Below are positions 6,254-49,941 of a stretch of DNA of 64,000 bases, piece after piece. The notes beneath the pieces are model-generated. The model ran no database searches. It was given only the letters and a program-made list of their open reading frames with translations, and was not told where the DNA came from. Made by a program: the position numbers and the translations under genes. The DNA is from Parcubacteria group bacterium. Lineage in GTDB: Bacteria; Patescibacteriota; Minisyncoccia; Phycocordibacterales; UBA2100. Location: positions 2,771 through 66,770 of the forward strand of contig CALRGX010000003.1 in the NCBI GenBank assembly GCA_943358385.1, read 5' to 3'. Each line of letters starts with the position of its first letter. Position 1 is the first letter of the stretch.

Positions 6254-7031
6254 TAGCAGCAAAGTACGCTTGGGCATGTTTGCGCTGGTGCTCGTGGCGG
6301 TGCTCTTTTTTGCTACCGAGTATTTTTCGGGTGGCGCGATTCGCGCAGGTGCCCGTGATGTGGCGGCGGTCGTGTGGGGCACGTCGCGCAGCACCTACGA
6401 CACCACGGGAGCAAGTGGTTTTTTCAAATCTAAAGTGGTGTTGGCAAAAGAGAATCAAGCACTCCGAAAGGAGCGCGACGCACTTTTAACGATGCAGTTT
6501 CAAAACGATGTACTCCGCTCTGAAAATGCGTCTCTGCGCGCATTTCTGAATGCACATGAAGCACATCCTGACGGCATCGTGGCAGCAGTTTTGTCGCGCC
6601 CTGGTATTTCTCCGTACGATACGTTTGTGATTGGCATGGGTGAGGGCGATGGAGTGACGGTGGGCGATTGGGTATTGGTTGCACCGGGATTGGTGATTGG
6701 AGAAATCAAAGAGGTAGGGGCACAAACTGCATTGGTGTCACTTTTTTCAGCACCAGGGTATGCGAAAGAAGTACTGTTGCGTGAAGCACTGTTGACCTAC
6801 ACCGGTCAAGGGAGTGGCGGCGGTGTGGTGCAGGCTCCACGTGACTTAGAGGTGCAAGTGGGGGACCTCATCTATCTCGCGAATAGCGGGCTCTCACTCG
6901 GTGTGGTGGGTCACGTCTCTGCCAAACCAGAAGACGCCTATCACGAAGTATTGATTGCGCCCCCGGCAAATCTTCCGGCCCTCCGCTTTGTCGAGGTGGT
7001 ACACCCGCAGGTGGCGGCAGTGCAAGAGTAG
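6228..7031 (+). CDS. mreC: Rod shape-determining protein MreC
   Basis: Follows mreB. N-terminal TM then a coiled-coil (LAKENQALRKERDALL) and a beta-rich C-terminal domain. Start is ambiguous (6228 or 6276). Confidence 0.8.
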   Translation: MMNSRRNSNSSKVRLGMFALVLVAVLFFATEYFSGGAIRAGARDVAAVVWGTSRSTYDTTGASGFFKSKVVLAKENQALRKERDALLTMQFQNDVLRSENASLRAFLNAHEAHPDGIVAAVLSRPGISPYDTFVIGMGEGDGVTVGDWVLVAPGLVIGEIKEVGAQTALVSLFSAPGYAKEVLLREALLTYTGQGSGGGVVQAPRDLEVQVGDLIYLANSGLSLGVVGHVSAKPEDAYHEVLIAPPANLPALRFVEVVHPQVAAVQE

Positions 7032-7038
7032 CGTCTGT

Positions 7039-7293
7039 ATGATACGCGCGTTTATTTCCGGAGTTGCCATGGCGAGCGTCTTTTTTGCTCCCGCATGGGT
7101 GCCACTTTTGACGGTGGGAATGTTGGCGCTGCGGTTTGCGGCATGGGAAGCAGTGTTGGTTGGTTTTCTGGTAGACCTGCTCTACGCACCTGGTGGTTTT
7201 TTCTGGGGCATTCCGATGCCTGCAACGCTTTTGATGCTGGTGGTGGTCATCGCGCTCTACCCATGGCGCACACAGTTGGCTGTCAGCCGCTGA
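7039..7293 (+). CDS. mreD: MreD-like small membrane protein
   Basis: 84-aa polytopic hydrophobic ORF immediately downstream of mreC, by position and topology. Confidence 0.45.
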   Translation: MIRAFISGVAMASVFFAPAWVPLLTVGMLALRFAAWEAVLVGFLVDLLYAPGGFFWGIPMPATLLMLVVVIALYPWRTQLAVSR

Positions 7294-7349
7294 TTCGCCA
7301 TTATGCCTTCATATTTCCATAGCGAACGGTCGACGGGTATACTCTCTTC

Positions 7350-9011
7350 ATGGCACGCTTTCGACAAGCGATGATTGATCCAGAAAATATTTTTCTGGAT
7401 TCACAAAACATGGCAGAGTTCGACACGGCCCATTTTGAAGGGCGTGTTGAAAAGCCAGTCGCTCCTTCGGCGCTCTACGCGATCGGTGTGGTGTTTTTGA
7501 TTGCGGCGGCGCTCTTTTTGTACAAGATGTTTGATTTGCAAATTGTACAGGGTGCACAATACGCGCTCGCGGCGCAGGAAAATACACTCGCATACTCACT
7601 GGTGTTTGCGGAGCGTGGCATTTTGTACGACCGCACGGGGAAGGAATTGGCATGGAACGAGCCTGGTGAATATTTTGCGCGTCGCGCGTACAGCCTGCTC
7701 CCCGGGTTGGCGCATGTATTGGGGTATGTGCAGTATCCAAAGGCTGATGGTTCTGGTTTGTGGTGGCGCACCGAATATGCGGGCATCGCGGGTGCGGAAA
7801 AGGCCTTCGACCGTGAGCTCTCGGGTATCAATGGAAAAGAAATGGTGGAGGTGGACGCACATGGTGCGGTTGCACGGGGGCACGTGGTGGAACAACCCCA
7901 AGACGGTCAATCACTTCGCTTGAGTATCGACGCAGAGGTACAAAGCAAGTTACATACGACCATGGCTGCGCACGCGGCCAACAATCGCTTTCAAGGAGGG
8001 GCAGCAGTCATCATGGATGTGCGCACCGGCGAACTTTTAGCGCTCACTAGTTTTCCTGAGTTTACCCCGCAGCCGCTCGTTGATGGTGATTCCGAGAAAG
8101 TCGCTGCCTTTGCGAATGACCCGGCGAAGCCTTTTCTTGACCGTGCCATTTCCGGCGTATATACACCAGGCTCGATTGTGAAGCCACTCTTTGCTGCCGC
8201 CGCGCTGGCTGAAGGCATCATTTCACCAGACAAATCAATTTTTAGCCCAGGCTATATCACTATCCCGAACCCATACCATCCAGAGTTACCAACGATTATG
8301 AAAGACTGGCGGGCGCACGGATGGACCACGATGCGCAAAGCAATCGAGGTATCGTCTGACGTGTATTTTTACTCGATTGGCGGTGGGTACGAAGATCAAA
8401 AAGGGCTCGGCATCACCAAGCTTGATGAATACGCGCTCCGTTTTGGACTGGGAAAAGAAACAGGCGTTCCGCTTGAAGGGGAGGTGGTGGGCACTATCCC
8501 TACGCCTGCATGGAAGAAGGAAATTTTTGGTGCTGATGAAGAATGGCGCCTAGGAGATACGTACAACACATCGATTGGGCAGTATGGATTTCAGGTGACG
8601 CCCATTCAAATGGCGCGTGCAATCGCCTCTATTGCCAATGGTGGGACGTTACTCACGCCGCAGCTGCATGCCAGCTCCACTGCGCAAGGAACTGATATTG
8701 GCATCGATGCTGCGCAACTGAAAATAATTCGTGAAGGCATGCGCCAGGCGGTTGCCGGTGACGCCGGGACTGCACGTGCGCTGAATATATCTGGTATACA
8801 CATCGCCGGTAAAACAGGTACCGCTGAATTGGGAAATCGGAAGCAGTACATGAACTCGTGGGTGGTGGGATTTTGGCCGATGGAAAATCCTCGCTACTCC
8901 TTTGCTGTGGTGTTGGAACACGCGCCTGCAGGCACGCTCTCAGGAGCTTCGCCCGGCATGCGTGGTTTTTTTGAGTGGCTCGTCGCCACAAAACCAGAGT
9001 ACGTGCAGTAA
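7350..9011 (+). CDS. mrdA: Penicillin-binding protein 2 (elongasome transpeptidase)
   Basis: SIVKP (SxxK), SDV (SxN-like) and KTGTA motifs. N-terminal TM. Directly downstream of mreBCD. Confidence 0.9.
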   Translation: MARFRQAMIDPENIFLDSQNMAEFDTAHFEGRVEKPVAPSALYAIGVVFLIAAALFLYKMFDLQIVQGAQYALAAQENTLAYSLVFAERGILYDRTGKELAWNEPGEYFARRAYSLLPGLAHVLGYVQYPKADGSGLWWRTEYAGIAGAEKAFDRELSGINGKEMVEVDAHGAVARGHVVEQPQDGQSLRLSIDAEVQSKLHTTMAAHAANNRFQGGAAVIMDVRTGELLALTSFPEFTPQPLVDGDSEKVAAFANDPAKPFLDRAISGVYTPGSIVKPLFAAAALAEGIISPDKSIFSPGYITIPNPYHPELPTIMKDWRAHGWTTMRKAIEVSSDVYFYSIGGGYEDQKGLGITKLDEYALRFGLGKETGVPLEGEVVGTIPTPAWKKEIFGADEEWRLGDTYNTSIGQYGFQVTPIQMARAIASIANGGTLLTPQLHASSTAQGTDIGIDAAQLKIIREGMRQAVAGDAGTARALNISGIHIAGKTGTAELGNRKQYMNSWVVGFWPMENPRYSFAVVLEHAPAGTLSGASPGMRGFFEWLVATKPEYVQ

Positions 9012-9097
9012 CGTGTTTTTCGCAAGACTCGTACGAGAGGGAAGCCAAGTCTGCACCTCCCGCTCGCGCACCTCTTCATGATGGGCGCAAAAATTGT

Positions 9098-9130
9098 CCA
9101 CTTTGCTTTTCCTGGGGACAGGGTACAATG
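9098..9130 (+). promoter_or_regulatory. Sigma70-like promoter upstream of greA
   Basis: TTGCTT-N17-TACAAT upstream of the greA ATG. Confidence 0.4.
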
Positions 9131-9144
9131 ACCCCCATAGCTCT

Positions 9145-9612
9145 ATGAATGAAAACAACAACTACCTGACTCAGGAAAAGTTCGATGAATTGACGGCGGA
9201 ACTTAACCATTTGAAAACGGTGCGCCGCAAAGAAATTGCAGAGCAGCTCGAATACGCACGGTCTCTCGGGGATCTCTCAGAAAATGCTGAATACCAGGAA
9301 GCGCGCAACTTGCAGGGCGCAACCGAAGACCGCGTACGTCAGCTCGAGGCAGCCCTTGCACACGTGCAGATTATCGAGCACGCTAAGAGCAGCAAAATCA
9401 CCTTGGGCAGTGTCGCCACCATCCAAAAGCAGGGCGAAAAGGAAGAGCACACATATGAAATTGTGGGATCGGCCGAAGCAAACATGCTGGAAAGAAAGAT
9501 TTCACACCTCTCACCGATGGGCGCAGCTTTGATGGGGAAGAAGAAGGGAGATTCTTTTGAGTTCGACACGCCGAAAGGGAAGCAAAAGTATAAAATCATT
9601 GCTCTGAAATAG
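9145..9612 (+). CDS. greA: Transcription elongation factor GreA
   Basis: N-terminal coiled-coil with DLSENAEY acidic-tip motif and a C-terminal FKBP-like domain. ATG at 9145. Confidence 0.9.
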   Translation: MNENNNYLTQEKFDELTAELNHLKTVRRKEIAEQLEYARSLGDLSENAEYQEARNLQGATEDRVRQLEAALAHVQIIEHAKSSKITLGSVATIQKQGEKEEHTYEIVGSAEANMLERKISHLSPMGAALMGKKKGDSFEFDTPKGKQKYKIIALK

Positions 9613-9628
9613 GTGTAACCTCGTACAT

Positions 9629-9668
9629 AAAAGCAAGCCCTCGCCATGCGAGGGTTTGCTTTTATGTG
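9629..9668 (+). terminator. Rho-independent terminator of greA
   Basis: aagcaagccctcgc-catg-cgagggtttgctt followed by ttatgtg. Confidence 0.65.
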
Positions 9669-9714
9669 AATATATAGTATAATACTGCTGGTTTCCTCAA
9701 CTTGGGAGTTCACG

Positions 9715-9924
9715 ATGACCATCGAAGGTCTGTGGATACTACGTGATGCAGTGAGCAAGGCGGGGCAAGTACTTGCCGCCGGGGCCATGGTTGCCTCGTT
9801 GGTGGTTCTGCCGCATGGTTTTGCAGCTTTGGGTCAGGCATGGGCGGATCTGCCCTGCTTCGCCTACCTGTGCCTCACCGTATCATGCCTCCTCTTCGAG
9901 GACTGCCTGAGACCGGTTGAATAA
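9715..9924 (+). CDS. Possible small hydrophobic protein (69 aa)
   Basis: GGGAG RBS 7 nt before the ATG. Hydrophobic product. Followed by two hairpins (9905-9934, 9948-9980). No similarity recognised. Confidence 0.3.
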   Translation: MTIEGLWILRDAVSKAGQVLAAGAMVASLVVLPHGFAALGQAWADLPCFAYLCLTVSCLLFEDCLRPVE

Positions 9925-9947
9925 CTTGTCTCAGGCCACCTATCTCT

Positions 9948-9980
9948 GCGCGGGCACCTCTGGTGCCCGCGTTCTGTATT
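9948..9980 (+). terminator. Hairpin terminator candidate
   Basis: gcgcgggcacc-tctg-gtgcccgcg followed by ttctgtatt. Confidence 0.5.
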
Positions 9981-9999
9981 AGTGCGATGGTTCTGTCCT

Positions 10000-10270
10000 T
10001 TTTTCTGTCATTCCTACCACCTACCACCTCGCACCTTCTGCTTCCTCTCTTGTTTTTCTTCTCCCCTAGACGCTATACGCTTTTTCCCTGCGTCTAGTTT
10101 TCCTTATACGCTAACCCCTACTCCCTTGTTTTCTGTTCTTCCTCCCACCTGTAACCTTCCACCTCTTACCTCTGCTTCGTTCCCCCGACGCTGTACGCTT
10201 TTCCCTTGCTTCTAGTTTTCCTCGCACCTGAAACCTGCGACCTCGCACCTTCTCCCTCCTCCCTATATAC
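10000..10270 (-). repeat. Two tandem purine-rich repeat copies in the lysK leader (family members C and F, minus orientation, pyrimidine-rich on the plus strand)
   Basis: Plus strand carries ccacctaccacctcgcaccttc and direct subrepeats gacgctatacgctttttccctgcgtctagttttcct and gacgctgtacgcttttcccttgcttctagttttcct. The reverse complement matches repeat E. Confidence 0.6.
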
Positions 10271-19169: not shown

Positions 19170-19721
19170 TTATTCTTTGCGACCCCGCTCCTTGCCGAAC
19201 ACCTTCAGAAGATTGGCTAGGTCAATGAACTCGTCGGCTTGTCGCCGGAGTTCGTCAGCCGCGAACGGTGCGGCTGGGTCTATGCTCGAGACCACGATGA
19301 CCCGTCTTCCCATGTCCTGAATTGCTTCGACGAGAGGAGTGAAGTCGGCGTTGCCGCTGAAGAGAACAATCTCGTCAACGGTAGGAGCAATCGTAATCGC
19401 CTGCACTGCCAGCAGGACATCGATCGTTCCCCTCAAGCGACGGTTCCCAGAAGTGTCGCCGCGTTCCTTCGCTAGCCGGGTCACCATGGTATAACCATTG
19501 TAATCCAGCCAGTCGAGCAATGGACGAATGCTCTGCACACCGTCCTCACCCTCCTCAACGGTCGTGAAATAGTACGACCGAAGAAGGTGGCTTCTTGCTC
19601 GGGCCCACAGCGTCAGCTTCCGGTAGTCAACATCCATGCCGAACGCTCTCGCGCAGGAATAAGTGTTGGCTCCGTCGATGAGTACAGCGCTTTTAGGCTT
19701 GTACTCTACTTTGTCGGCCAT
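19170..19721 (-). CDS. NYN/LabA-like domain protein (putative RNase)
   Basis: AVLIDGANTY and GNADFTPLVEA...VIVVS motifs typical of LabA/NYN (PIN-like) domains. Confidence 0.7.
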   Translation of the reverse strand: MADKVEYKPKSAVLIDGANTYSCARAFGMDVDYRKLTLWARARSHLLRSYYFTTVEEGEDGVQSIRPLLDWLDYNGYTMVTRLAKERGDTSGNRRLRGTIDVLLAVQAITIAPTVDEIVLFSGNADFTPLVEAIQDMGRRVIVVSSIDPAAPFAADELRRQADEFIDLANLLKVFGKERGRKE

Positions 19722-19947
19722 GCCGACCTCCATCGCCGCTTCAATACCACCCTGGGAGGTGGCCACCTCCACAGATGTGGAGGCCGCAGACAGCGGCAAA
19801 CCTTACGTCATATGGATATTATACCACATATTAGAAATAACACAATGGACCAAAAAAGGCGTGTGCACAAAGCTTTTTTGGCACGTTTCCTCGCATGGTA
19901 CGCTGGGGGGCGTGTCTAGCTACGTTCATCAACTCCGTGACTTCCTG

Positions 19948-22059
19948 ATGAAGTCGACCGCCCCGCAGGTCTTGATCTTCTCGAGCGCCGCACTGTACTT
20001 CCTCTTGGAATTTATTGTTGGGAAGTATCTGCTGCCGATTTTCGGTGGCTCGTGGGCAGTGTGGATCACGGTGCTGTCTTTTTTCACCACTGCCTTACTG
20101 CTGGGGTATCTGTATGCGCATTGGCTCATTCAAAAAAATGCACAGACGCAGCGGCAGTGGCATCGCGCATTGCTTTTGTTGGCTGCGCTTTGTGTCGGTA
20201 GTGTCGGCGCGGCTGTTGCTTTGGGCGCCAACATTCCCGCATACTTCGGCGTCGGCAACTTACCACCAGCTCTGGAAATTATTCTGCTACTCCTCTGCAC
20301 CGTTGGCATCCCTGCAATCGCCCTAGCTGCCACCAATACCTTGGTACAGCACTGGAGCTATGAAAACGAAGGCACGTATCGCCTGTACGCACTTTCGAAT
20401 GCAGGATCATTTGTGGGGCTACTCAGCTATCCGTTTCTGGTGGAGCCGCTCCTTGCGGTCCCTACACAAGCCGCCTTGTGGGCACTAGGTTTTATCTTCT
20501 TTGCCTACCAGTTGCGTCGCTTTATACAAAAAGATGCGCACGCAGTAGCAACGCACGTACACAGTGAAAAAGTGTCTATTGGTACCAAATTGCTGTGGCT
20601 CACTCTGGCCGCATTCCCCGCGCTTCTGATGGTCGCCACTACCGCGCAAATCACACACGTCGTTGCCCCTATCCCGCTTCTCTGGATGGTGCCGCTTGGT
20701 TTGTATTTGCTTTCATACGTGCTCGCGTTTTCAGGGAGAGGTGGGGGGAGGGTGGCCACCGGGATGTTTCTTGCGGCGGCATGGGGGTCTCTCTACCTTC
20801 TTGATGCAGGGGTCACATCGTTTATGGAGCGGCTCGGGGTGTACCTTTCGCTTCTGTTCTTCGCGTCCTTGGTTCTCCATGCTCATCTATTTGCTGCACG
20901 GCCAAAAGGTGCGCAGCTTTCACTCTTTTACTTCTATGTATCACTCGGTGGCGCCCTGGGCACACTGCTGATTTCTTTTGGTGCACCGCTGGCCTTCAAT
21001 GATCTGTGGGAGTTTCCCATCGCGGTGCTCATAGGGGTGATACTTTCCACCGTATTCTTCCTTTACTCTTTGGTAGGGCCGAAATTTATTTGGCCAGTAC
21101 GCATCCTTGCCGTCGGCTTCGTCTTTATTGCAGTGAATCAATTCTACGTATTCACCCAGGCTGAATTTGGCTTTGAGGGGACCGAGCGCAACTTCTACGG
21201 CATCACGATGGTATACAAAACCGACGACAAGGTCTCGCTCTATCACGAGGAAACGTTGCACGGTTCGCAATTTACGGATGCTGAAAATTCGAGAAAGCCA
21301 ACGACGTACTATTCGTTGCATGGGGCAGTCGGGCGCTCGTTTGGCTACGAGCGTGTGGTGGCGCATCCTGAGGGTCCGCTTAATGTGGCGATTATAGGAC
21401 TAGGAACAGGTACGGTCGCTGCATATTGCCGTCCAGGAGACTCATTTGTGTACTACGAAATAGATCGACGCATGGAGCGTATTGCGCGCAACGATTTCAC
21501 GTATTTGTCGCACTGTCCGGGGGTCGAAGTGCGCATTGGCGACGCACGTCGTGTGATGGAATTGGAGGTAGATGCAGGAAAAAAACAAATGTATGACATC
21601 CTGATCATCGATGCGTTCAACGACGACAACATTCCCGCACATTTGGTGACCGTTGAGGCGCTCGAGACCTACGCACAGCTGATGCGGCACGACGACAGTA
21701 TCATCGCGTTCCATACATCGAATCGTTATCTAGAGCTGGCGCCGCTCGTAGTGTCTCTTGCCAAAGAAAAAGGTTTTGCGGCAGTCGTCATAGATGGTGG
21801 CGGTGAGGCAGATGTGGGCGGCACTTCATCTCAGTGGGTACTGCTCTCGAAAAACACCGATGTATTCAAGCGTGAGCTCTTTCTAGAAAATTCAGACGAA
21901 CTACCGACGTATCTGCCGCGCCCGTGGACCGACACCTACTCAAATATTCTCCCTATCATTTCCGTACCCACCTCTTTTGCAGACATAATTGGCGAGAGAA
22001 TATTTTTTCCTACTCCATGGCCGCTGTATGCATCCTCGACCCTTGATACGGCAGAATAA
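19948..22059 (+). CDS. Membrane-anchored spermidine-synthase-like protein (multi-TM N-domain plus aminopropyltransferase-like C-domain), paralog A
   Basis: About 10 TM helices. C-terminal GLGTGTVAAY...DILIIDAFNDDNIPAHL spermidine-synthase-fold motifs (COG4262-like). Confidence 0.75.
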   Translation: MKSTAPQVLIFSSAALYFLLEFIVGKYLLPIFGGSWAVWITVLSFFTTALLLGYLYAHWLIQKNAQTQRQWHRALLLLAALCVGSVGAAVALGANIPAYFGVGNLPPALEIILLLLCTVGIPAIALAATNTLVQHWSYENEGTYRLYALSNAGSFVGLLSYPFLVEPLLAVPTQAALWALGFIFFAYQLRRFIQKDAHAVATHVHSEKVSIGTKLLWLTLAAFPALLMVATTAQITHVVAPIPLLWMVPLGLYLLSYVLAFSGRGGGRVATGMFLAAAWGSLYLLDAGVTSFMERLGVYLSLLFFASLVLHAHLFAARPKGAQLSLFYFYVSLGGALGTLLISFGAPLAFNDLWEFPIAVLIGVILSTVFFLYSLVGPKFIWPVRILAVGFVFIAVNQFYVFTQAEFGFEGTERNFYGITMVYKTDDKVSLYHEETLHGSQFTDAENSRKPTTYYSLHGAVGRSFGYERVVAHPEGPLNVAIIGLGTGTVAAYCRPGDSFVYYEIDRRMERIARNDFTYLSHCPGVEVRIGDARRVMELEVDAGKKQMYDILIIDAFNDDNIPAHLVTVEALETYAQLMRHDDSIIAFHTSNRYLELAPLVVSLAKEKGFAAVVIDGGGEADVGGTSSQWVLLSKNTDVFKRELFLENSDELPTYLPRPWTDTYSNILPIISVPTSFADIIGERIFFPTPWPLYASSTLDTAE

Positions 22060-22074
22060 TGGAGCATCAGCTAC

Positions 22075-24144
22075 ATGTCTACTATGAAACAGATAATACA
22101 ATTCTTTAAACGCTTTAGTCCTGCGGAGACACTGATCTTCTCGAGCGCCGCACTGTACTTCCTCTTGGAATTTATTGTTGGGAAGTATCTGCTGCCGATT
22201 TTCGGTGGCTCGTGGGCAGTGTGGATCACGGTGCTGTCTTTTTTTACCGTCGCCCTTTTGTTGGGGTATGTGTATGCGCATTGGCTCACCAAGCGAACAG
22301 TTGCGGTACAACAAAAAATGCACCGGACGCTTCTTCTGGTTGCACTCGTGCCTGCGGCGCTCGTAGGTATAGCGATCATGAGTGGAGCGAGCGTGCCTGC
22401 ATACTTCGGCGTCGGCAACTTACCACCAGCTCTGGAAATTATTCTGCTACTCCTCTGCACCGTTGGCATCCCTGCAATCGCCCTAGCTGCCACCAATACC
22501 TTAGTACAGCACTGGAGCTATGAAAACGAAGGCACGTATCGCCTGTACGCACTTTCGAATGCAGGATCATTTGTGGGGCTCCTCAGCTATCCGTTTCTGG
22601 TGGAGCCGCTTTTTTCCGTGCGGGTGCAAGCGGTATTGTGGGTCATCGCATTTGTGTACTTTGTATATGCCATGCGGCACTTCATCCTGCATACCGCGGC
22701 CATAGAAGTGGCAAAAGATGAACATCACACACCCGTTTCAGTCTCACGGCGCCTCACGTGGCTTGGACTCGCCGCATTCCCCGCGCTTCTGATGGTCGCC
22801 ACTACCGCGCAAATCACACACGTCGTTGCCCCTATCCCGCTTCTCTGGATGGTGCCGCTTGGTTTGTATTTGCTTTCATACGTGCTCGCGTTTTCAGGGA
22901 GAGGTGGGGGGAAAGTCGTCATGACGCTCTTCGTTCTCTCTGCAGGAGGGTCGTTGTACCTACTGGACGCGAGCGTGCATGTGTACATGTTGCGCTTGTT
23001 TGTGTACTTGCCGCTTCTTTTCTTTGCATCACTCTCGATTCATGCTCTTTTGTATCGACTACGCCCTCATGGTGGGGCGCTGTCGTCTTTTTATCTGTAT
23101 CTGTCCCTTGGCGGGGCATTGGGCACGCTTTTGGTTTCTTTTGGTGCGCCGATCATTTTCAACGAGCTCTGGGAGTTTCCGCTTGCAGTGTTTGCCGCAT
23201 TTTTGGGAGGCTGTGCGCTCCTCTTGTACAGTGCATCTGCACACCTGTCGTCATGGGTGCCGCGTGTACTCATGGTGGCAGTGGCCTTTGGAGCGGGGCA
23301 GTTTTTCTATGCATTTACGCAGGAATATTTTGGTTTTGAAGGAGTGGAAAGAAATTTCTACGGCATCACCACGGTGGTAGATGGCCCTGACAAAGTGACC
23401 CTGTTGCACGAGCAAACGGTGCATGGCACACAGCTTAAGTTTGATGAGCGCGTACCTACCGCGTACTTTACGCTCCACAGCGCCATTGGAAGAACGTTTG
23501 GCTATCAGCGTGTGGTGGCACACCCCGATCGGCCGCTTTCGGTGGGCGTGATTGGATTGGGCGCAGGCACCATGGCGGCGTACTGTCGACCAGGAGACAC
23601 GTTTGTATATTACGAAATCGACGCACGCATGGAGCGCATTGCGCGCAACGATTTCACCTACCTATCGCACTGCCCCGGGATAGAAGTGCGCATCGGTGAT
23701 GGACGACGCTTGATGGAGCAAGAAGTGGCGGCGGGGCAGACGGGCGTCTACGATGTGCTGATGGTTGATGCATTCAACGACGACAACATTCCTGCACACT
23801 TGGTAACGGTAGAAGCGCTGGATGTCTACGGCAAACTATTGCGCGAGAAAGACAGTATCATCGTTTTTCAAGCATCGAATCGTTACATTGCCCTTGCGCC
23901 TTTGGTTATCGCACTCGCCAAAGAGCGTGGCTATTTCGCGGTAGTGATGGAAGGGGATGTGAGCATGGACACTGCGTCACTCACTTCGCAATACGTGCTT
24001 CTTTCGAAAGATCCGCACGTGTTTAGCCAGAAACTGTTCCTTGAGGCATCGGTGGAGCTGCCGAAGTATTTACCGACTGCATGGACTGATACCTACTCAA
24101 ACATTCTGCCGCTACTCACGCTGCCGAGCCCTTTTCGGGATTAA
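22075..24144 (+). CDS. Membrane-anchored spermidine-synthase-like protein, paralog B
   Basis: Same architecture as A. Three DNA blocks nearly identical to A (22127-22250, 22396-22620, 22770-22912). Confidence 0.75.
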   Translation: MSTMKQIIQFFKRFSPAETLIFSSAALYFLLEFIVGKYLLPIFGGSWAVWITVLSFFTVALLLGYVYAHWLTKRTVAVQQKMHRTLLLVALVPAALVGIAIMSGASVPAYFGVGNLPPALEIILLLLCTVGIPAIALAATNTLVQHWSYENEGTYRLYALSNAGSFVGLLSYPFLVEPLFSVRVQAVLWVIAFVYFVYAMRHFILHTAAIEVAKDEHHTPVSVSRRLTWLGLAAFPALLMVATTAQITHVVAPIPLLWMVPLGLYLLSYVLAFSGRGGGKVVMTLFVLSAGGSLYLLDASVHVYMLRLFVYLPLLFFASLSIHALLYRLRPHGGALSSFYLYLSLGGALGTLLVSFGAPIIFNELWEFPLAVFAAFLGGCALLLYSASAHLSSWVPRVLMVAVAFGAGQFFYAFTQEYFGFEGVERNFYGITTVVDGPDKVTLLHEQTVHGTQLKFDERVPTAYFTLHSAIGRTFGYQRVVAHPDRPLSVGVIGLGAGTMAAYCRPGDTFVYYEIDARMERIARNDFTYLSHCPGIEVRIGDGRRLMEQEVAAGQTGVYDVLMVDAFNDDNIPAHLVTVEALDVYGKLLREKDSIIVFQASNRYIALAPLVIALAKERGYFAVVMEGDVSMDTASLTSQYVLLSKDPHVFSQKLFLEASVELPKYLPTAWTDTYSNILPLLTLPSPFRD

Positions 24145-24240: not shown

Positions 24241-24552
24241 ATGACTGCATTTCGCGCGTTTTTGATCGCCCTCATCGTCGGTTTGGTTGGTGGGATGACT
24301 ACTTCTGCCATCCGCGCCGACGACCTGCAGAAGCCTGCGATACAGGTGGAAGCAACGGCTCCGGCCCTGCAAAAAATGGCGGTTCTCGCCACGAAACTGC
24401 CGGAAACCATGAGCCTTCCCTCGGGCGTCGTGCCCATCTGCAGCGCGCCGAAGATTTCCTGCGAGTCGTTCTGCTTCCAGTGTCGCGGCGGCCGCGGCTC
24501 CTGCATACGCGACTGCAAGAACCGCGGCAATCCCTGCGTGAGCCCGTGTTGA
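24241..24552 (+). CDS. Small secreted cysteine-rich protein (103 aa)
   Basis: N-terminal signal/TM. Eight Cys in the last 36 residues (C-x6-C-x3-C-x2-C-x6-C-x3-C-x6-C-x3-C). Own terminator. Confidence 0.5.
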   Translation: MTAFRAFLIALIVGLVGGMTTSAIRADDLQKPAIQVEATAPALQKMAVLATKLPETMSLPSGVVPICSAPKISCESFCFQCRGGRGSCIRDCKNRGNPCVSPC

Positions 24553-24574: not shown

Positions 24575-24610
24575 GCCGGCCCCGACTCTGTCGGGGCCGG
24601 CTTCTGTTTG
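24575..24610 (+). terminator. Rho-independent terminator
   Basis: gccggccccgac-tctg-tcggggccggc followed by ttctgtttg. Confidence 0.7.
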
Positions 24611-24675: not shown

Positions 24676-24823
24676 AACATGCCCAGGTGCACGATTAAGG
24701 ACGTGCGTCCTGAGTCTGGTGAATCCATTGGATTCAGCAGAGTCCCCGTGTCTTGAAAAAGATGCGGGGAACATGATGCCCCAGCACAACATGCTGGGAA
24801 CCACCTACATCTCACGAAAATAT

Positions 24824-25258
24824 ATGTTCATCGGCGAGTACGAACACGCGTTAGACGACAAAAAACGGGTGATGCTCCCGAAGGCATTCAAGAATGGGTT
24901 AGGTAAGAAAATGGTGATGACGCGGGGTTTTGACAATTGTTTGTTTGTCTACCCACAAGACGCGTGGAAGAAAGTTGCGGAAAAACTTCAGACACTTTCT
25001 TTTGCGCAGGCTGATACGCGTGGGTTCAGTCGCTTTCTGCTTTCAGGTGCGGCAGAGGTAGAGGTTGATGCTGCTGGTCGTGTGCTGATTCCGGAAAACC
25101 ACAAGCAATTCGCTGGTCTCAAAAGGACGGTGGTCTTTGCAGGGGTCTCGGATCGGGTCGAAGTGTGGGATGCAGGGCTGTGGAAGAGCTATAAAGCGCG
25201 CATTGAGAAGCAAGCTGATGCGATGGCCGAAAAGCTCGGTGAGATTGGAGTGCTGTAG
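24824..25258 (+). CDS. mraZ: Transcriptional regulator MraZ
   Basis: Two DxxxR motifs (DDKKRVMLP and DAAGRVLIP). MFIGEYEH N-terminus. Confidence 0.9.
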   Translation: MFIGEYEHALDDKKRVMLPKAFKNGLGKKMVMTRGFDNCLFVYPQDAWKKVAEKLQTLSFAQADTRGFSRFLLSGAAEVEVDAAGRVLIPENHKQFAGLKRTVVFAGVSDRVEVWDAGLWKSYKARIEKQADAMAEKLGEIGVL

Positions 25259-30878: not shown

Positions 30879-30950
30879 GGCCCTATCGTCTAGCGGCTAG
30901 GACACGGCCTTCTCAAGGCTGTAACCGGGGTTCGATTCCCCGTAGGGTCA
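30879..30950 (+). tRNA. tRNA-Glu (anticodon CTC)
   Basis: Cloverleaf with acceptor GGCCCTA/TAGGGTC, D-arm GTCT-AGCGGCTA-GGAC, anticodon loop TTCTCAA and T-arm CGGGG-TTCGATT-CCCCG. Resembles E. coli tRNA-Glu. Confidence 0.85.
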
Positions 30951-32476
30951 CATTCAGAAACTTGGTCGGAAGTAAGCGCGAAATCTGGGCGCGCCGAAGG
31001 CGCGCTGTATGGCGAGGGAATGAAATCCGTCTTGCGGGCGCGGGCGAATTCGGAGGGCGGGCAAAATGAGATCGAAATAGTTTTGTCTTTTAGCGCGGGG
31101 TTCGTTCCGAAGGAACGCAGAAAATCTCGCATTTCGTGGAGATTTTCACTGGTTGCCAGAAACCCCGCGCGTTTTGAATCCAAAATCCACTTCCGCAGGG
31201 GTTCGACCCAATTCTTTCTCTCGGCTCGGGCAGATGAAGATTTTGCTTGAAGCGAGCTCCTTTGACGCATGAGCGCGTCCTTTTTCGTTAGATATATGTC
31301 GCGCTCAATATCGTGGTTTAAGTACAAATCCACGAGTGCGTCGAGCTTCGCTTCAAGCGTTTTCAAATCTTCCTTCATCTGCCCGAGCCGATTTCCCGAA
31401 GCGTGAATTTCGTCATGCTCAAAAACCTCTACTTTTTTGAGCATATAATTTGCCCACGCTTCGGGAAGCGACACTGTTTGAAGCTGTTCCTTTACTTGGA
31501 GAGCGAGCGCATCTTCCTGCAAATATCCTTGACCACATTTTCCTTTCTTTTTCGTACAACGATAATAGCGATACCGACCGCCCATTTTTCCAGTACACCA
31601 TTGAGCAGTTATCATCGAGCCACATTCCCCACAACGAAAAAGTCCGGTGAAAGGAAAATTGTGAGATATTTTGCTATGCCTCGGATGCGCTCGCACGAGA
31701 AGTTGTTTCTGCACAGCTTCAAACAGTGTCGGAGAAAGAATTGGCGCAAAGCTTCCGGGAAAATATTCCTCACGATGCTTGGTAAATCCCAAGTATGCAC
31801 GATTCGTCAAGATCCTTTTCACGGAAGCTTTGCCAAGGGGCGTTCCGGACTTTTGAGCAACACCGTGGTCAGCCAAAAATTGCGACAACGAAATGAGGGT
31901 ATGTGTTCCTTTTACATACTCGCCAAACGCGCGCACAATAATTTTAGATTTCACCGGATTAGGTTCGATATTTCGTGTGGTGGGGTTGTTCACATACCCG
32001 AATGGAGCGCGGGTTAGCCATTCTCCGCGTCGCAATTTTTGGCGCATACCTCGCTCAACATTTTGCTTCAAATTGTCGGAATAATATTTGCTCTGTCCGA
32101 ACGCCACTTGAAGCATAAATAGCCCCTGCGGAGTGGGTTCAAACCAAAATGTCGGAAAACGCAAAGAGATGATTTTTGAAGTGTCTACGGCGTAAATGAT
32201 GCGTCCTCCGTCAATACTATTTCTCGCTAGTCGGTCAGGATGCCATGCGAGGATGCCAACATTGCCTAACTTATCAATTTTGAGCATCATTTCGCCGAAC
32301 ACTTCTCGTCCCGGACTCTTTGCGCTTTTCGACTCTTGAAATTCCTCAAGAATTTCAAGATTTTCTCTGCTCGCAAATTCACGAAGTTCCACAAGTTGAG
32401 CTGGAATACTCATCACTTGCTTATCGTCATCTTCGGTGCTCTTGCGAGCATAGAGAAAATATTTTGGTTTGTTCAT
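30890..32476 (-). CDS. Large serine recombinase (resolvase catalytic domain, recombinase domain, zinc-ribbon, coiled-coil)
   Basis: YARKSTEDDDKQVMSIPAQ with catalytic Ser, and a DRLAR motif. CGECGS...YYRCTKKKGKCGQGY zinc ribbon. The last ~57 codons are encoded by IR-A plus the antisense of tRNA-Glu. Confidence 0.85.
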   Translation of the reverse strand: MNKPKYFLYARKSTEDDDKQVMSIPAQLVELREFASRENLEILEEFQESKSAKSPGREVFGEMMLKIDKLGNVGILAWHPDRLARNSIDGGRIIYAVDTSKIISLRFPTFWFEPTPQGLFMLQVAFGQSKYYSDNLKQNVERGMRQKLRRGEWLTRAPFGYVNNPTTRNIEPNPVKSKIIVRAFGEYVKGTHTLISLSQFLADHGVAQKSGTPLGKASVKRILTNRAYLGFTKHREEYFPGSFAPILSPTLFEAVQKQLLVRAHPRHSKISHNFPFTGLFRCGECGSMITAQWCTGKMGGRYRYYRCTKKKGKCGQGYLQEDALALQVKEQLQTVSLPEAWANYMLKKVEVFEHDEIHASGNRLGQMKEDLKTLEAKLDALVDLYLNHDIERDIYLTKKDALMRQRSSLQAKSSSARAERKNWVEPLRKWILDSKRAGFLATSENLHEMRDFLRSFGTNPALKDKTISISFCPPSEFARARKTDFIPSPYSAPSARPDFALTSDQVSECDPTGNRTPVTALRRPCPSR

Positions 32477-32646
32477 AAATAGTTTTTGGATTCAAAAAAA
32501 GAAACTATTAAGATCTCATTTCTTGCTTTCCGCCCGCCCTCCGAATTCGCCCGCGCCCGCAAGACGGATTTCATTCCCTCGCCATACAGCGCGCCTTCGG
32601 CGCGCCCAGATTTCGCGCTTACTTCCGACCAAGTTTCTGAATGTGA
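30948..32646 (-). mobile_element. Large serine recombinase gene bounded by perfect 115-bp inverted repeats (IR-A), abutting the tRNA-Glu 3' end
   Basis: 30948-31062 is the exact reverse complement of 32532-32646. The left IR starts in the last 3 nt of tRNA-Glu. Confidence 0.8.
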
Positions 32647-32866
32647 TCTAATCATATCCTTTGCGCGAACCTTTTTCGAGAGCTAATCGCACGCTCCGCG
32701 TGCGTGGTGGCTTTAGACCAATGCGTACGCTCCGATTGCGTGGTGACTCTCACAATCCGACCAGCGCCTCGCGGACTCGGCGCTCCGCCCTCGCCCCGTT
32801 CCGCCTTTCCATACTTATTTTTTCGCGGGGGGGGATTTTTTTAAAATTGAATGGGCGGAAACGGGG
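32644..32866 (+). repeat. IR-B left copy (223 bp)
   Basis: Reverse complement of 38872-39092. Internal ~22-bp subrepeats (acgctccg..tgcgtggtg x2). G8 and T7 homopolymer tracts (the right copy has C6 and A7). Confidence 0.85.
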
Positions 32867-32872
32867 CGAGGG

Positions 32873-33298
32873 CTACGAACGTAACTTCTTATAAAGAACA
32901 AATCCTATAAACATAGCCGCACCTCCTATCACGAGATGTGGCGTGTTAAGAACCAATCTCGTAAACATATCTGCAACTGGCTCTGTATCAAAATGAAAAA
33001 GATTGAGATTGAGGTATGCTTTACCAGCAAAAACTCCCACGACACCGTCAAGGAAATAAGCTGTCCCAAATGCTCTAAAATAGAACAAGGCGGCGCCACG
33101 AGAATACCACGCTGCAAGTGCAGCCCAGATTCCGGAGAGGATATGCAGATTGTTTGCTATGGGTTCAAGTTTGAAAAAGCCGAATATCAAGCCGTTTTCC
33201 GCAATAATGAAAGGCATGTAATTCATTGCAGCCAAAAAAGTAAACATAGCTGTAAATAACCACGCCAAATTTTGAACTGTAAAATATTTATAGACCAT
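32873..33298 (-). CDS. Small polytopic membrane protein (141 aa), DUF4383-like guess
   Basis: Four predicted TM helices. First gene inside the IR-B cassette. Confidence 0.4.
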   Translation of the reverse strand: MVYKYFTVQNLAWLFTAMFTFLAAMNYMPFIIAENGLIFGFFKLEPIANNLHILSGIWAALAAWYSRGAALFYFRAFGTAYFLDGVVGVFAGKAYLNLNLFHFDTEPVADMFTRLVLNTPHLVIGGAAMFIGFVLYKKLRS

Positions 33299-33359
33299 GA
33301 GGGTGTCGCTAGTTATTAGTAAAATGTATTATAATAATAGCACAGCTTAAATACGTCCT

Positions 33360-34964
33360 GTGGCAAAACTACGATCACACTTGAAACCGAAAATCTCAAG
33401 CATCCTGCTTGTCTTTTTTGCGCTTCTCGCCTTGATTCTTGGAAAGAAAACATACGATCTCGCCGCCGCGCCGAAAAATGAGAGAGATTGCAATTTTGTC
33501 TATCCGTATACGACCGATAAAACAACGATTGAAATACGATATTCCGGTTTGGATGAATCAGGACTCGAAGTGCTTCAAAAGGGCGGGACGATCAATGATG
33601 CGAGCTGTCTCAATAAAACGAATGTATATGCGATTGTGCAGGTCAGGAGCGAGGACGATATCGAGGCCGCGCTCCAATTCGCCCGTGAGCATGATCTCAA
33701 AGTCACTCCTGCAGGTGAGCATCACAGTATGGGCGGACAGAGTTTCTCCCGCGGTGGTCTCGTGCTCGACATGCGAGAGTTTGACCAGATAAAGGTAGAC
33801 AAAGCAAACAAGATACTCAATGTACAAAGCGGCGCGTCATGGAAAGAAGTACAGGCAGTGCTTGATCCGTTGGGACTTGCGGTAAAGGCGATGCAATCCA
33901 TCAACATCTTCACAGTGGGAGGAACGCTAAGCGTCAATGCTCACGGCATTGTGCATGATCCGGGACAGATCGCCCCGACGGTGCGTCAGATTCGAGTCAT
34001 GTTGAGTTCCGGAGAAATTAAAACTGCAAGCCCCACCATAAATCCTGAATTGTTTAGCGCTGTGCTCGGCGGCTACGGCCTCTCCGGCATTATTCTCGAT
34101 GTTGATCTTGATATCGTTGACAACGAGTCATATGCGTGGAAGACGGAATACATGGATTTCAAAGATTTTCCCGAATATTATCGGAACGAGATTATCGGGA
34201 ACGACGACGTCGGACTTTTTTATGCGCGACTCTCGATTGCGCCGGGCTCTTATCTCACAGAGACGGCAATTCATCGGTATGAAAAACTTGATTTTGAGAT
34301 GGAGCCGGAGCCGCTACGGGGTGCATCAAAAGTTTGGATAAAGCGTCTTATCTTCAATATTTCAAAAACCGGAGGACTTGGCCGATGGATGCGCTGGACT
34401 ACCGAAAAATATCTTGAGCCGGGCGTGCATACCTGTATCTCCCGCAACCAAGCGATTGCGACTGGCCATGAGGAGGAGATTTGTGTGGCAAGTCGAAACA
34501 ACAAAATGAATCAATCAATGGAATACCTTGACGTCCGACAGAAAGATACCAACATCCTGCACGAATACTTTATCCCTCTTGAAAACTCGGTAGCGTTTAT
34601 CGAGGGATTGAAAAAAGTAGTAAGGGAGGATGACGTAAATCTTTTGAATGTGACCCTGCGCATCGTCACGAAGGATACGATTACCGCGCTGCCATACGCA
34701 AAAGACGACCGCATCGCATTCGTGCTTTACTTCAATCAAAAATTGAACGAAAAGGACAGCAAGAAATTGGAGAAAGCGACCGTGGACTTGATTGATCTCG
34801 CTGTTGCAAACGGAGGAACATATTATCTCCCGTATCAACTCTATTACTCAAAAGAACAGTTGCGCGCAGCGTATCCCGAAATAGACCGCTTCTTTGGACT
34901 GAAGCACAGATATGACCCGATTGGTTTATTCTCTAACTCCTTTTACGAAAAGTACGGCGACTGA
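33360..34964 (+). CDS. FAD-linked oxidoreductase (FAD_binding_4 / vanillyl-alcohol-oxidase or DprE1-like fold) with N-terminal TM anchor
   Basis: LKVTPAGEHHSMGGQSFSRGGLVLDM FAD-binding (PCMH) motif. 534 aa. N-terminal TM. Confidence 0.7.
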   Translation: MAKLRSHLKPKISSILLVFFALLALILGKKTYDLAAAPKNERDCNFVYPYTTDKTTIEIRYSGLDESGLEVLQKGGTINDASCLNKTNVYAIVQVRSEDDIEAALQFAREHDLKVTPAGEHHSMGGQSFSRGGLVLDMREFDQIKVDKANKILNVQSGASWKEVQAVLDPLGLAVKAMQSINIFTVGGTLSVNAHGIVHDPGQIAPTVRQIRVMLSSGEIKTASPTINPELFSAVLGGYGLSGIILDVDLDIVDNESYAWKTEYMDFKDFPEYYRNEIIGNDDVGLFYARLSIAPGSYLTETAIHRYEKLDFEMEPEPLRGASKVWIKRLIFNISKTGGLGRWMRWTTEKYLEPGVHTCISRNQAIATGHEEEICVASRNNKMNQSMEYLDVRQKDTNILHEYFIPLENSVAFIEGLKKVVREDDVNLLNVTLRIVTKDTITALPYAKDDRIAFVLYFNQKLNEKDSKKLEKATVDLIDLAVANGGTYYLPYQLYYSKEQLRAAYPEIDRFFGLKHRYDPIGLFSNSFYEKYGD

Positions 34965-35891
34965 TTAGCGGTGTTCATACTTATCCCGCATCTTCTTCGC
35001 AAGTGGTGGTTCGTCCGTGACGAGGCCGTATGAATTCTTGCGAAGCGCGAAGTCAACCGACGTTTCGTCGTTGACCGACCAGAGAAACACCGGGTATCCC
35101 TTCGCAAGGAGTTTATCGATCACGGCTTCATCAACTTGATACTGAATACTGACCGCATCGGGCTTTACAAGTTTTCTAATCAGAGTCCGCGTCCACTCCG
35201 TTTGTAAGTACCACGGCAATGTAACTCGGTCTTCTTCCTTCGTTTCCGCAATCCGTTTCGGATCCCACCCTGTATCCATGAATATGAAAACCGTCTTGAT
35301 GCGCGGATCCATTTTTTTGAGGCGATGCAGGACAACCGGATTGAACGAACTTATATACACCCGCTCATACGCATTATGTTTTGCTAGTACCTCGTTCACG
35401 CGCCGCTCGATGCCTGTATCCGACGCGGCGGGCACTTTCAACTCAACCATCAGGTATGCATCGGGTGTTATCTCCTTGACAAAATCCTCGAACGTCTTGA
35501 TGTATACGCCAGAAAATCCGTTCCCATACTTTGTTCCGAGATCATACGTTTGCAGTTCTGTAAGCGTCTTTGCATCAATGCGGCCTTCGCCCGTTGTAAA
35601 CCGCTCAAGGGACACGTCATGGAAAATCACCACTTCTTCATCCTGCGAGAATTGAGCATCAACATCTACACCGTCAAACCCTTGTGCAACGGCAATTCGC
35701 GCTCCCTCCAAGCTGTTGTCAGGCGCATGATTACCAAAACCGCGATGTGCAAACACCAATATTTGTTCGTCAGTTGAAATTAAGCCTTTGTATTTTGGCT
35801 CGTATAAAAACAGGTACGCTGGAAGTGCAACGACCACCAAGACAATAACCGAGGTGTATTTGAATATTTTTCCTTTTGCGAAAGTGGGCAT
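34965..35891 (-). CDS. Glycerophosphodiester phosphodiesterase family protein, membrane-anchored
   Basis: HRGFGNHAPDNSLEG and FDGVDVDAQFSQDEEVVIFHD GDPD catalytic motifs. Confidence 0.75.
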   Translation of the reverse strand: MPTFAKGKIFKYTSVIVLVVVALPAYLFLYEPKYKGLISTDEQILVFAHRGFGNHAPDNSLEGARIAVAQGFDGVDVDAQFSQDEEVVIFHDVSLERFTTGEGRIDAKTLTELQTYDLGTKYGNGFSGVYIKTFEDFVKEITPDAYLMVELKVPAASDTGIERRVNEVLAKHNAYERVYISSFNPVVLHRLKKMDPRIKTVFIFMDTGWDPKRIAETKEEDRVTLPWYLQTEWTRTLIRKLVKPDAVSIQYQVDEAVIDKLLAKGYPVFLWSVNDETSVDFALRKNSYGLVTDEPPLAKKMRDKYEHR

Positions 35892-35940
35892 ATTCTCCTA
35901 TATCAAGATATACTAACAGTATACTTCCTTTCACAAACGA

Positions 35941-36828
35941 ATGACATTCTCTGCTTTCAAAAAACATAAGGTGGTGCGCTTGATTGCGCGAGTGGCTATC
36001 GGTACAGTCGTACTTTTCGCAATTCTTGTGTTATCACTTCTGTTGTTTCGCGAGCCTTCAAACGATAGGGATTGGGCGTTTGATCAGTCAATATTGCCGT
36101 ATGCAATTTTTGACGGCGACATAGTGACGATAAAAAATATCCGCAACTTCTCCTATGCGTCGCGCAACGAATATGCGCCAAACTATTACGACAAGACGTT
36201 TGATTTACGAACGATAGAATCAGTGGATTATATTGTTGAGCCACTTGCCAGCATCGCCGCCGCGCACACGTTTTTGAGTTTCGGCTTTAAGAATGGCGAT
36301 CATGTTGCCATCTCCATTGAAATACGAAAAGAAAAGGGCGAGGAATTTTCCCCGTTCCGAGCACTCGTCAACGAGTACGAGATCATGTATGTCATCGTTG
36401 ATGAGCGCGACACTATACAACTCCGTGCTATACATCGGGACAACCCTGTTTATCTCTATTCTGCCAAAGTATCGCCTGATAAGATAAGACCGCTATTCGT
36501 TGATATACTGGAGCGAGCAAACAAGCTGAAAGAGAAGCCGGAATTTTACAACACTCTTACAAACACCTGCGCAACGAACATTGCAGACCATATCAACAAT
36601 ATCTCGCCTGGACGCATCTCGTTTGATTGGCGAATTTTGCTTCCACTTGATTCCGATCAATTTGCCTACGAACTTGGATTGATTGACAACTCACTGCCGT
36701 TTGAGGAAGTACGCCAGAAACATCTTATAAACGATTTTATAAAAGAGTACGCAGACGACCCCGACTTTTCCGTCAAGATACGCGAAGCGCAACAGCGCTC
36801 GCTCGCTAATACCGACTCATCCCAGTAA
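35941..36828 (+). CDS. DUF4105-like (Lnb N-terminal-domain-like) protein
   Basis: N-terminal TM. YNTLTNTCATN motif resembling the DUF4105 signature. Confidence 0.5.
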   Translation: MTFSAFKKHKVVRLIARVAIGTVVLFAILVLSLLLFREPSNDRDWAFDQSILPYAIFDGDIVTIKNIRNFSYASRNEYAPNYYDKTFDLRTIESVDYIVEPLASIAAAHTFLSFGFKNGDHVAISIEIRKEKGEEFSPFRALVNEYEIMYVIVDERDTIQLRAIHRDNPVYLYSAKVSPDKIRPLFVDILERANKLKEKPEFYNTLTNTCATNIADHINNISPGRISFDWRILLPLDSDQFAYELGLIDNSLPFEEVRQKHLINDFIKEYADDPDFSVKIREAQQRSLANTDSSQ

Positions 36829-38871: not shown

Positions 38872-39092
38872 CCCCGTTTCCGCCCATTCAATTTTAAAAA
38901 AATCCCCCCGCGAAAAAATAAGTATGGAAAGGCGGAACGGGGCGAGGGCGGAGCGCCGAGTCCGCGAGGCGTTGGTCGGATTGTGAGAGTCACCACGCAA
39001 TCGGAGCGTACGCATTGGTCTAAAGCCACCACGCACGCGGAGCGTGCGATTAGCTCTCGAAAAAGGTTCGCGCAAAGGATATGATTAGATCA
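38872..39092 (-). repeat. IR-B right copy (221 bp)
   Basis: Reverse complement of 32644-32866 except for homopolymer tract lengths. Confidence 0.85.
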
Positions 39093-49934: not shown

Positions 49935-49941
49935 TAGGTGC

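Follow-up and report, generated by a model that had tools for sequence, protein, structure and literature searches.

How can two neighboring genes be all but identical at the DNA level in three short internal segments, synonymous sites included, while the remainder of their length has diverged to synonymous saturation? The question is raised by a tandem pair of membrane protein genes, here called A and B, in a stretch of 64,000 nucleotides (nt) from a Parcubacteria group bacterium (assembly GCA_943358385.1, contig CALRGX010000003.1, positions 2,771 to 66,770 of the forward strand), which is referred to throughout as the window. Gene A (19948–22059, forward strand) is an open reading frame (ORF) of 703 amino acids (aa) in which an MFS-like membrane domain is fused to a spermidine-synthase-like domain, and gene B (22075–24144, forward strand; an ORF of 689 aa) is its tandem paralog. 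The answer proposed here, to which we assign a probability of roughly 0.93, is interlocus gene conversion between A and B, that is, concerted evolution restricted to particular segments of the two genes.

A codon-aware alignment of A (19948–22056) with B (22075–24141), comprising 677 codons, gives overall identities of 68.1% for nucleotides and 67.5% for amino acids. This identity is strongly bimodal: three blocks are 99–100% identical, the flanks are about 50–60% identical, and 60-nt windows between the blocks drop to 40–55%. Block 1 (forward strand, as are all three; A 19973–20084, B 22133–22244) is exact over 112 nt and continues to 20128/22288 at 94%; block 2 (A 20239–20450, B 22399–22610) covers 212 nt with two mismatches, its exact runs measuring 104, 77, and 29 nt; and block 3 (A 20608–20749, B 22771–22912) is exact over 142 nt. 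Together, the blocks account for about 470 nt of 2.1 kb, and the longest exact run elsewhere in the genes is 20 nt. The silent sites follow the same division. Among degenerate codons that specify an identical amino acid in both genes, the same codon is used at 145 of 150 positions in the blocks versus 112 of 290 outside them (Fisher p = 2.5e-37), and the Nei-Gojobori synonymous divergence (dS) between A and B is 0.05 in the blocks, while outside them it is saturated, with a proportion of synonymous differences (pS) of 0.77–0.79. Runs of identical codons reach lengths of 44, 34, 34, and 24, a pattern attained in none of 20,000 permutations (0/20000), in which the longest run was 29. An earlier interpretation made from the letters alone (the sequence-only reading) had described three blocks that are nearly identical even at synonymous sites, and both the exact runs and the region-by-region dS bear this out; the uniform divergence that would have spoken against it is not what the sliding-window identities display. 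Its coordinates were right to within about 5–20 nt, although block 2 had been extended some 20 nt too far (to 20470) and the offset of block 3 is 2163 nt rather than 2170. GC-biased conversion was also considered and rejected, the GC content of third codon positions in the blocks (0.55–0.67) not being consistently above that found elsewhere.

A comparison with related genomes makes it possible to place these blocks in time. Relatives were collected by a protein search with B and by contig look-ups, yielding four further assemblies in which a reverse-strand NYN-domain gene, A, B, a small ORF, and mraZ follow one another in the same layout. The first, L002 (GCA_943354405.1), was assembled independently from the same strain; it is 99.98% identical to the window, with two single-nucleotide polymorphisms (SNPs) over 12 kb, none of them in A or B, and has the same blocks. 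The second, L001 (GCA_021733565.1; L1 below), has about 86% DNA identity to the window (W below) and the same synteny. The third, P5 (GCA_018060545.1, a metagenome-assembled genome (MAG) of Ca. Pacebacteria), carries the locus on two contigs, L007 and L005; the breaks lie just past block 1 and within block 2, so that A and B are truncated there (over the whole of L007 and at L005 1–130) and carry the annotation ‘partial’, and breaks at the blocks are expected because real repeats split short-read assemblies. The fourth, L003 (L3 below), consists of Logan contigs from two runs and encodes proteins that are 55–57% identical. In metagenome contigs from the Joint Genome Institute (JGI), neither a protein search nor a degenerate 78-nt pattern for block 3 turned up more members of the clade or alternative mosaics.

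Within the blocks, the paralogs of one genome resemble each other more than they resemble their counterparts in other genomes. The A/B identity inside a genome is 0.98–0.99 in W, 0.93–0.99 in L1, and 0.94–0.95 in P5, compared with 0.77–0.90 between genomes. Block 3 provides the clearest example: the A and B copies of L1 are 99% identical, W and L1 are 84% identical, and both window copies differ from both L1 copies at the same 21 nt sites. The protein encoded by block 3 is identical in all six sequences from W, L1, and P5, and yet its DNA differs by 16–20% between genomes and is 94–100% identical within them. Phylogenetically informative sites tell the same story in aggregate, since between W and L1 those in the blocks group 43 by genome and 1 by paralog, versus 12 by genome and 306 by paralog outside the blocks; for W and P5, the corresponding ratios of genome to paralog are 63:0 in the blocks and 31:139 outside. 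When neighbor-joining trees are built from the C-terminal domain or from the membrane part outside the blocks, the A genes of W, L1, and P5 form one group and the B genes another, each with 100% bootstrap support. A neighbor-joining tree of the block columns instead pairs the paralogs by genome, with bootstrap values of 80% for L1, 97% for P5, and 96% for L3; the window pair receives only 16%, because the block proteins of W and L1 are nearly identical. All eight A and B sequences are monophyletic with respect to single-copy outgroups (100% bootstrap).

From blocks that group by genome and flanks that group by paralog it follows that the duplication predates the split of these species and that the blocks were re-homogenized later in each lineage. 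The C-terminal extension of A and a two-residue indel are shared even with L3, whose copies L3_A and L3_B can be recognized as A-type and B-type, respectively, by this two-residue deletion and by signature residues; this suggests that the duplication is older than the L3 split too. The sequence-only reading had spoken of recent patchy gene conversion between tandem copies, and its core is sustained by the separate homogenization of the same blocks in sister genomes and by flanks that keep their A/B orthology. The word ‘recent’ fits the window genome, with its block dS of 0.05, and does not fit the process, which is long-running and recurrent across species. As for the proposal to compare strains for alternative mosaics, L002 shows no variation in A or B, and the searches of JGI contigs found no alternative mosaic.

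By far the most probable course of events can be outlined as follows. An old tandem duplication in the ancestor of a small Pacebacteria-like clade gave rise to A and B, which have since diverged to synonymous saturation over most of their length. Short-tract, non-reciprocal homologous recombination between direct copies lying 2.16 kb apart has repeatedly overwritten three segments of 110–210 nt, separately in each descendant lineage, so that these segments evolve in concert and the rest of the genes as independent orthologs. The seed for conversion would be uninterrupted identity, which strong purifying selection may have left only in the three segments; in E. coli, a seed of a few tens of nt is needed for recombination. 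Overwriting the family-invariant core helices (1–2, 4–5, and 7–8) would presumably cost nothing, and each conversion would renew the identity, possibly making the state self-perpetuating. The flanks, at about 50% identity, may have escaped for good and may block heteroduplex extension, or else conversions into them may be purged by selection, A and B being functionally distinct.

Several observations sit less comfortably with gene conversion of this kind and should be weighed together. The C-terminal domain contains strongly conserved motifs, with identical runs of up to 20 nt, and yet has undergone no conversion; the notion that conservation permits conversion does not by itself explain these unconverted motifs, and because the runs stop just below a plausible seed length, they fit equally well with a limit set by homology and with a core maintained by selection. 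Which of these two causes, limiting homology or selection, produced the patchiness is something we infer from the pattern, and the conversion event itself is deduced from assembled genomes. Relative to L1 (positions 8525–8643 and others on L001), the dS of orthologs in the blocks (0.57–0.68; the corresponding values relative to P5 are 1.6–1.8) is about half that outside them (1.0–1.36), which could reflect codon constraint in the core helices, noise near saturation, or the history of conversion. In L3, the most distant relative, the signal is both older and weaker: the paralogs are closer to each other only in block 1 (dS 0.49) and, to a degree, in block 3 (dS 1.2), block 2 is unconverted, and the test of same-codon runs is not significant (P = 0.53). 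Finally, recA was not seen among the window ORFs scanned, which cover only 64 kb of the genome.

The position of the blocks on the protein bears directly on why the exchange is patchy. A confident AlphaFold model of B (pLDDT 90.2, pTM 0.90) shows where they fall. Block 1 covers helix 1, the PIFGGS loop, and helix 2 as far as its midpoint; block 2 takes in helices 4 and 5 with the loop that leads into helix 4; and block 3 contains helix 7 except for its first third, all of helix 8, and the GRGGG loop. No part of the C-terminal domain belongs to a block, and neither do the linker that joins helix 6 to helix 7 or helices 3, 6, and 9–13. In a family alignment of 40 sequences, the columns of the membrane domain that are invariant or nearly so are concentrated in exactly these three blocks, for example L40, P41, F43, G44, G45, V49, and W50; S161, N162, L169, Y172, and E177; and P255, W258, P261, L262, Y265, L266, and F273. 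It had been claimed that the identical blocks fall on conserved transmembrane helices, which agrees with their location on the family-invariant helices 1–2, 4–5, and 7–8; the accompanying claim, that the variable segments fall on loops and the C-terminal region, is correct for the latter and too narrow for the former, given that entire helices (H3, H6, and H9–H13) are variable as well.

Among the alternatives, the one that survives best accepts the conversion and holds that its patchiness is selected: A and B would cooperate, whether as a heteromer or by sharing one partner or substrate path, and this would require that their cores be identical. We consider this unlikely, although a number of observations are in keeping with it. 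Homogenization has affected the same three segments, within similar limits, in three or more lineages, both genes are kept under strong purifying selection in what is probably one operon, and the conserved C-terminal motifs have not been converted. By order, moreover, the segments match helices 1, 4, and 7 plus their neighbors, and in canonical MFS transporters helices 1, 4, and 7 line the central cavity. On the other hand, identity at synonymous sites confers no benefit at the protein level, the motifs are invariant across the family in single-copy genomes too, and a neutral, homology-dependent process yields the same pattern. More speculative still is a pair of related ideas that we regard as improbable. 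The blocks might constitute the exchangeable shared core of an A/B heteromer of MFS-like proteins whose spermidine-synthase-like domains may face outward, and they might also serve as in-frame crossover points for reversible hybrid genes or changes in copy number, the nucleotide identity being selected as a recombination substrate.

Explanations that dispense with conversion fare far worse. Without any recombination, the nucleotide sequence itself would have to be under selection, whether as an embedded RNA, a regulatory element, or an extreme codon constraint, or the protein would simply have to be invariant. The blocks do encode the most conserved motifs of the family, and the dS of orthologs is lower there (0.6 versus 1.0–1.4); nevertheless, species do differ from one another at the synonymous sites of the blocks, block 3 retains one protein in W, L1, and P5 with markedly different DNA, the sites in the blocks sort by genome at 43:1, and the conserved C-terminal motifs show normal synonymous divergence. 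A negative control is provided by two independent tandem pairs of the same protein family from Bryobacterales, L077 and L085, which have similar overall divergence and the same motifs and contain no identical run longer than 26 nt. Therefore, protein conservation alone does not make such blocks, and we give this explanation almost no credence. The two control pairs lie at 6001–10252 (L077) and 3939–8040 (L085), and their copies are 58% and 52% identical in amino acid sequence, respectively; the first copy in L077 matches in two tblastn pieces and may be frameshifted.

It is scarcely more credible that each genome underwent its own recent duplication, with the divergent segments later imported from foreign alleles and the blocks left as remnants. 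A tandem layout with perfect blocks is indeed what a very young duplication would leave, and it is the divergent segments that contradict this scenario, for they are orthologous across W, L1, and P5 (by 306 sites against 12 between W and L1, and with full bootstrap support). The A/B-specific indel and C-terminal extension extend this orthology to L3, the synteny is identical, and independent import of the same segments in three or four lineages is not believable. An artefact of assembly or binning, in which paralogous stretches were collapsed, homogenized, or made chimeric, is likewise very improbable. All of the genomes are derived from metagenomes, the blocks are near the length of short reads, and the P5 assembly breaks at the blocks, which are legitimate grounds for suspicion; against them stand the two assemblies of the window strain that agree over 12 kb, the three further genomes from different projects that share the architecture, and the few copy-specific differences kept in the blocks of the relatives (93–99% identity), which imply that the assemblers resolved the copies. 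Comparison with the orthologs, moreover, shows no case in which A and B have exchanged a variable segment, and polishing does not turn a divergence of 20–50% into 100% identity. Unequal crossing-over as the sole mechanism can be dismissed outright, as it would homogenize the genes from the crossover to one end and not in three internal patches between diverged DNA.

The identity of the proteins themselves is less straightforward than the earlier label ‘spermidine-synthase-like’ would imply. Neither A nor B matches a Pfam family at E ≤ 0.01. Against the NCBIfam model NF037959 (‘fused MFS/spermidine synthase’, cut-off 40 bits), B scores 46.4 and A 37.1, that is, above and below the cut-off, respectively, and PRK04457 gives 25–31 bits versus a cut-off of 304. 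In Foldseek searches, the top matches for residues ~1–420 of the model are MFS transporters (the ferroportin homolog 5ayn with E = 3e-5, GLUT1/3, and VMAT2), with a root-mean-square deviation of 6–9 Å, an identity of 10–15%, and a TM-score on the target of 0.57 for 5ayn; for the C-terminal part they are COMT and other class I methyltransferases. With a full-length profile, no match was found among PDB sequences. For the C-terminal domain alone, the best PDB sequence match is the polyamine aminopropyltransferase 7xif (E = 8e-4), covering the N-terminal beta-hairpins and the Rossmann fold, and the model of B, with four strands at 422–454 followed by an alternating beta/alpha fold, fits the beta-hairpin subdomain and Rossmann fold of SpeE. 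The hallmark of aminopropyltransferases is a GGG(D/E)G loop whose acidic residue favors decarboxylated S-adenosylmethionine (dcSAM). This acidic residue is absent here: the GGGEG of 7xif aligns with GLGAG in B, and A has GLGTG, placing Ala and Thr, respectively, at a position that is not conserved in the 40-sequence family alignment. Because the acidic residue is replaced and its position is not conserved in the family, A and B are not classed as spermidine synthases (SpeE, PF01564). What remains of the label is a weak family resemblance, with B above the NF037959 cut-off.

A and B, both of them intact, retain the C-terminal residues that never vary in the family (YYEID, GD-RR, DAFNDDNIPAHL, and SNRY), and the ratio of nonsynonymous to synonymous divergence (dN/dS) between orthologs relative to L1 is about 0.03 for A and for B, indicating strong purifying selection; on account of these two facts, both genes are considered functional. 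Whereas the MFS fold has 12 helices, the model of B has 13 hydrophobic ones, and MFS motif A (G-x-x-x-D-R-x-G-R-[KR]) is absent from the loop between helices 2 and 3, which reads HWLTKRTVAV in B and HWLIQKNAQT in A. Lys and Arg are confined to the odd-numbered loops of the B model, and the sequence and model together point to an N-terminus inside the cell; should helix 13 (residues 394–418 of B, and likewise in A) cross the membrane, the spermidine-synthase-like domain would end up on the outer side. Such a location, if true, would be odd for an enzyme dependent on S-adenosylmethionine (SAM) or dcSAM and could mean that the domain has another role or is not an enzyme at all.

The family has a very wide distribution, with more than 6900 matches in the protein search with B, and among the matches listed are homologs from Patescibacteria, Betaproteobacteria, Acidobacteriota, Planctomycetota, and Chloroflexota. 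In a copy-number survey of the distant relatives listed (≤40% identity), 78 of 80 sampled loci were single-copy within 6 kb on either side, and the combination of a tandem pair with conversion is specific to the clade of the window. In the literature, we found no paper on this protein family and no tested function of any member.

The surroundings of the pair are consistent from genome to genome. B begins 15 nt past the stop codon of A, and the two genes are probably co-transcribed. The start of A was set at ATG 19948, given that a longer ORF runs into the divergent NYN-domain gene (19170–19799, reverse strand; Pfam NYN 2.6e-25) and that the L1 ortholog is also called as 703 aa; the longer starts at GTG 19663 or 19759, as called in L002, were rejected for their overlap with that gene and their disagreement with the L1 call. 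At its C-terminus, A is 24 aa longer than B. The pair is flanked by the NYN gene on one side and by an mraZ-rsmH-ftsL-penicillin-binding protein (PBP) division cluster on the other, a linkage of NYN and mraZ that occurs only within the clade; other loci in Patescibacteria lack it, apart from a loose proximity to mraZ in L011. The gene neighborhood offered no hint of what the proteins do. Downstream of B, a small gene of about 103 aa (24241–24552, forward strand, an ORF) encodes a hydrophobic N-terminal segment and a Cys-rich C-terminus (CxxxxCxxC...C...C...C); it has no Pfam match and is conserved in the same place in L1 (79%) and on contig L005 of P5 (53%). This gene is probably the last of the A-B operon, and its product, which to judge from its sequence is probably a membrane or secreted protein, might act together with A and B. 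A strong terminator-like hairpin (24575–24601, forward strand; 12 pairs, 11 of them G-C) precedes mraZ and closes the putative transcription unit formed by A, B, and the small gene. The mraZ gene (24800–25258) stands out in its own right, its protein being 98.6–99.3% identical between genomes while the neighboring genes are 80–88% identical and the DNA about 86% (window versus L1); MraZ is thus unusually strongly conserved in the clade.

Its gene content, which includes an M50 protease, ProRS, MreB, PBP2, a class I LysRS, a photolyase, the division and cell wall (dcw) cluster, an ATP synthase, and RND efflux genes, marks the window as a regular piece of chromosome from a Patescibacteria or Ca. 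Pacebacteria-like organism, and the nearest named relatives in the protein search with B are MAGs of ‘Candidatus Pacebacteria bacterium’. No third A/B paralog was found in the 64-kb window. A 692-aa ORF at 49882–51960, tried as a further paralog, proved unrelated to A and B; it has a signal-like N-terminus, a low-complexity tract rich in Gly, Ser, Thr, and Pro near the C-terminus, and no Pfam match. Elsewhere in the window, an 8.1-kb segment (30952–39089) of low GC content (about 46% versus 52% elsewhere) has no counterpart in L002, the assembly with 99.98% identity. Its start coincides exactly with the 3′ end of a tRNA-Glu(ctc) gene (30879–30951), it has TCAC at both junctions and encodes a large serine recombinase (30890–32476, reverse strand; Resolvase, Recombinase, and Zn_ribbon_recom domains), and its cargo is lipid-related (a GDPD phosphodiesterase, a PLD-like protein, an FAD/ALO-type oxidase, Lnb_N, and DUF4383). 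The segment looks like an integrative element recently gained or lost in a candidate-phyla-radiation genome.

Returning to gene conversion between A and B, the locus offers an unusually clean natural case of sub-genic exchange with internal controls, comprising three or four species that share the locus and tandem pairs without conversion. With it one could ask whether the ends of conversion tracts in bacteria are determined by minimal identity or by selection against overwriting diverged parts, and it shows homologous recombination acting on targets of 100–200 nt in a reduced-genome lineage of the candidate phyla radiation. For the protein family, the pattern separates a core that is intolerant of divergence (helices 1–2, 4–5, and 7–8) from regions of paralog specialization and may thereby guide mutagenesis when a function has been established. 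From a practical perspective, repeats of this kind fragment short-read assemblies, as in the P5 MAG, and can mislead the calling of orthologs.

Among known systems, the closest in architecture is the NF037959 family, whose members share the fused organization of A and B and most of whose loci are single-copy. In Helicobacter pylori, the outer-membrane protein paralogs babA/babB and hopM/hopN undergo segmental conversion in which the ends are homogenized and the middles are divergent. A and B resemble those pairs in being mosaic paralogs with homogenized conserved segments and distinct specificity-determining segments, the latter being a feature of the H. pylori genes. They differ in that the H. 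pylori genes lie at scattered sites and provide variation of antigens or adhesins under pressure from the host, whereas A and B are arranged in tandem, encode a polytopic inner-membrane protein, and show no sign of strain variation between the window and L002.

Concerted evolution of duplicated bacterial genes by conversion is well documented, tufA/tufB and mtrA-1/mtrA-2 being examples, and a study covering 26 genes describes it as rare but long-lasting in prokaryotes (Wang & Chen, 2018; PMC6053082). These cases are like A and B in that paralogs within one genome are closer than orthologs, synonymous sites included, and in that the process recurs in several lineages after an old duplication. 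Unlike in those cases, A and B are concerted in three short patches only and diverged elsewhere, and they are adjacent copies of an uncharacterized family in a host from the candidate phyla radiation; a search of that paper for the relevant terms found no discussion of partial or mosaic conversion. Mosaic divergence of tandem paralogs under conversion has also been treated in eukaryotes, for TLR1/TLR6 (PMC2077338) and in modeling of HMA4 (bioRxiv 10.1101/2025.10.29.685298). Conversion there likewise limits divergence in some stretches of the tandem copies and is excluded from others; those systems are eukaryotic, with meiotic or mitotic exchange, and no mechanistic link to A and B is implied. 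Thus, the process at work in A and B is already well known and calls for no new mechanism, and what makes this case notable beside the others is the sharpness of its sub-genic patches, their recurrence in at least three species, the built-in negative controls, and the host lineage.

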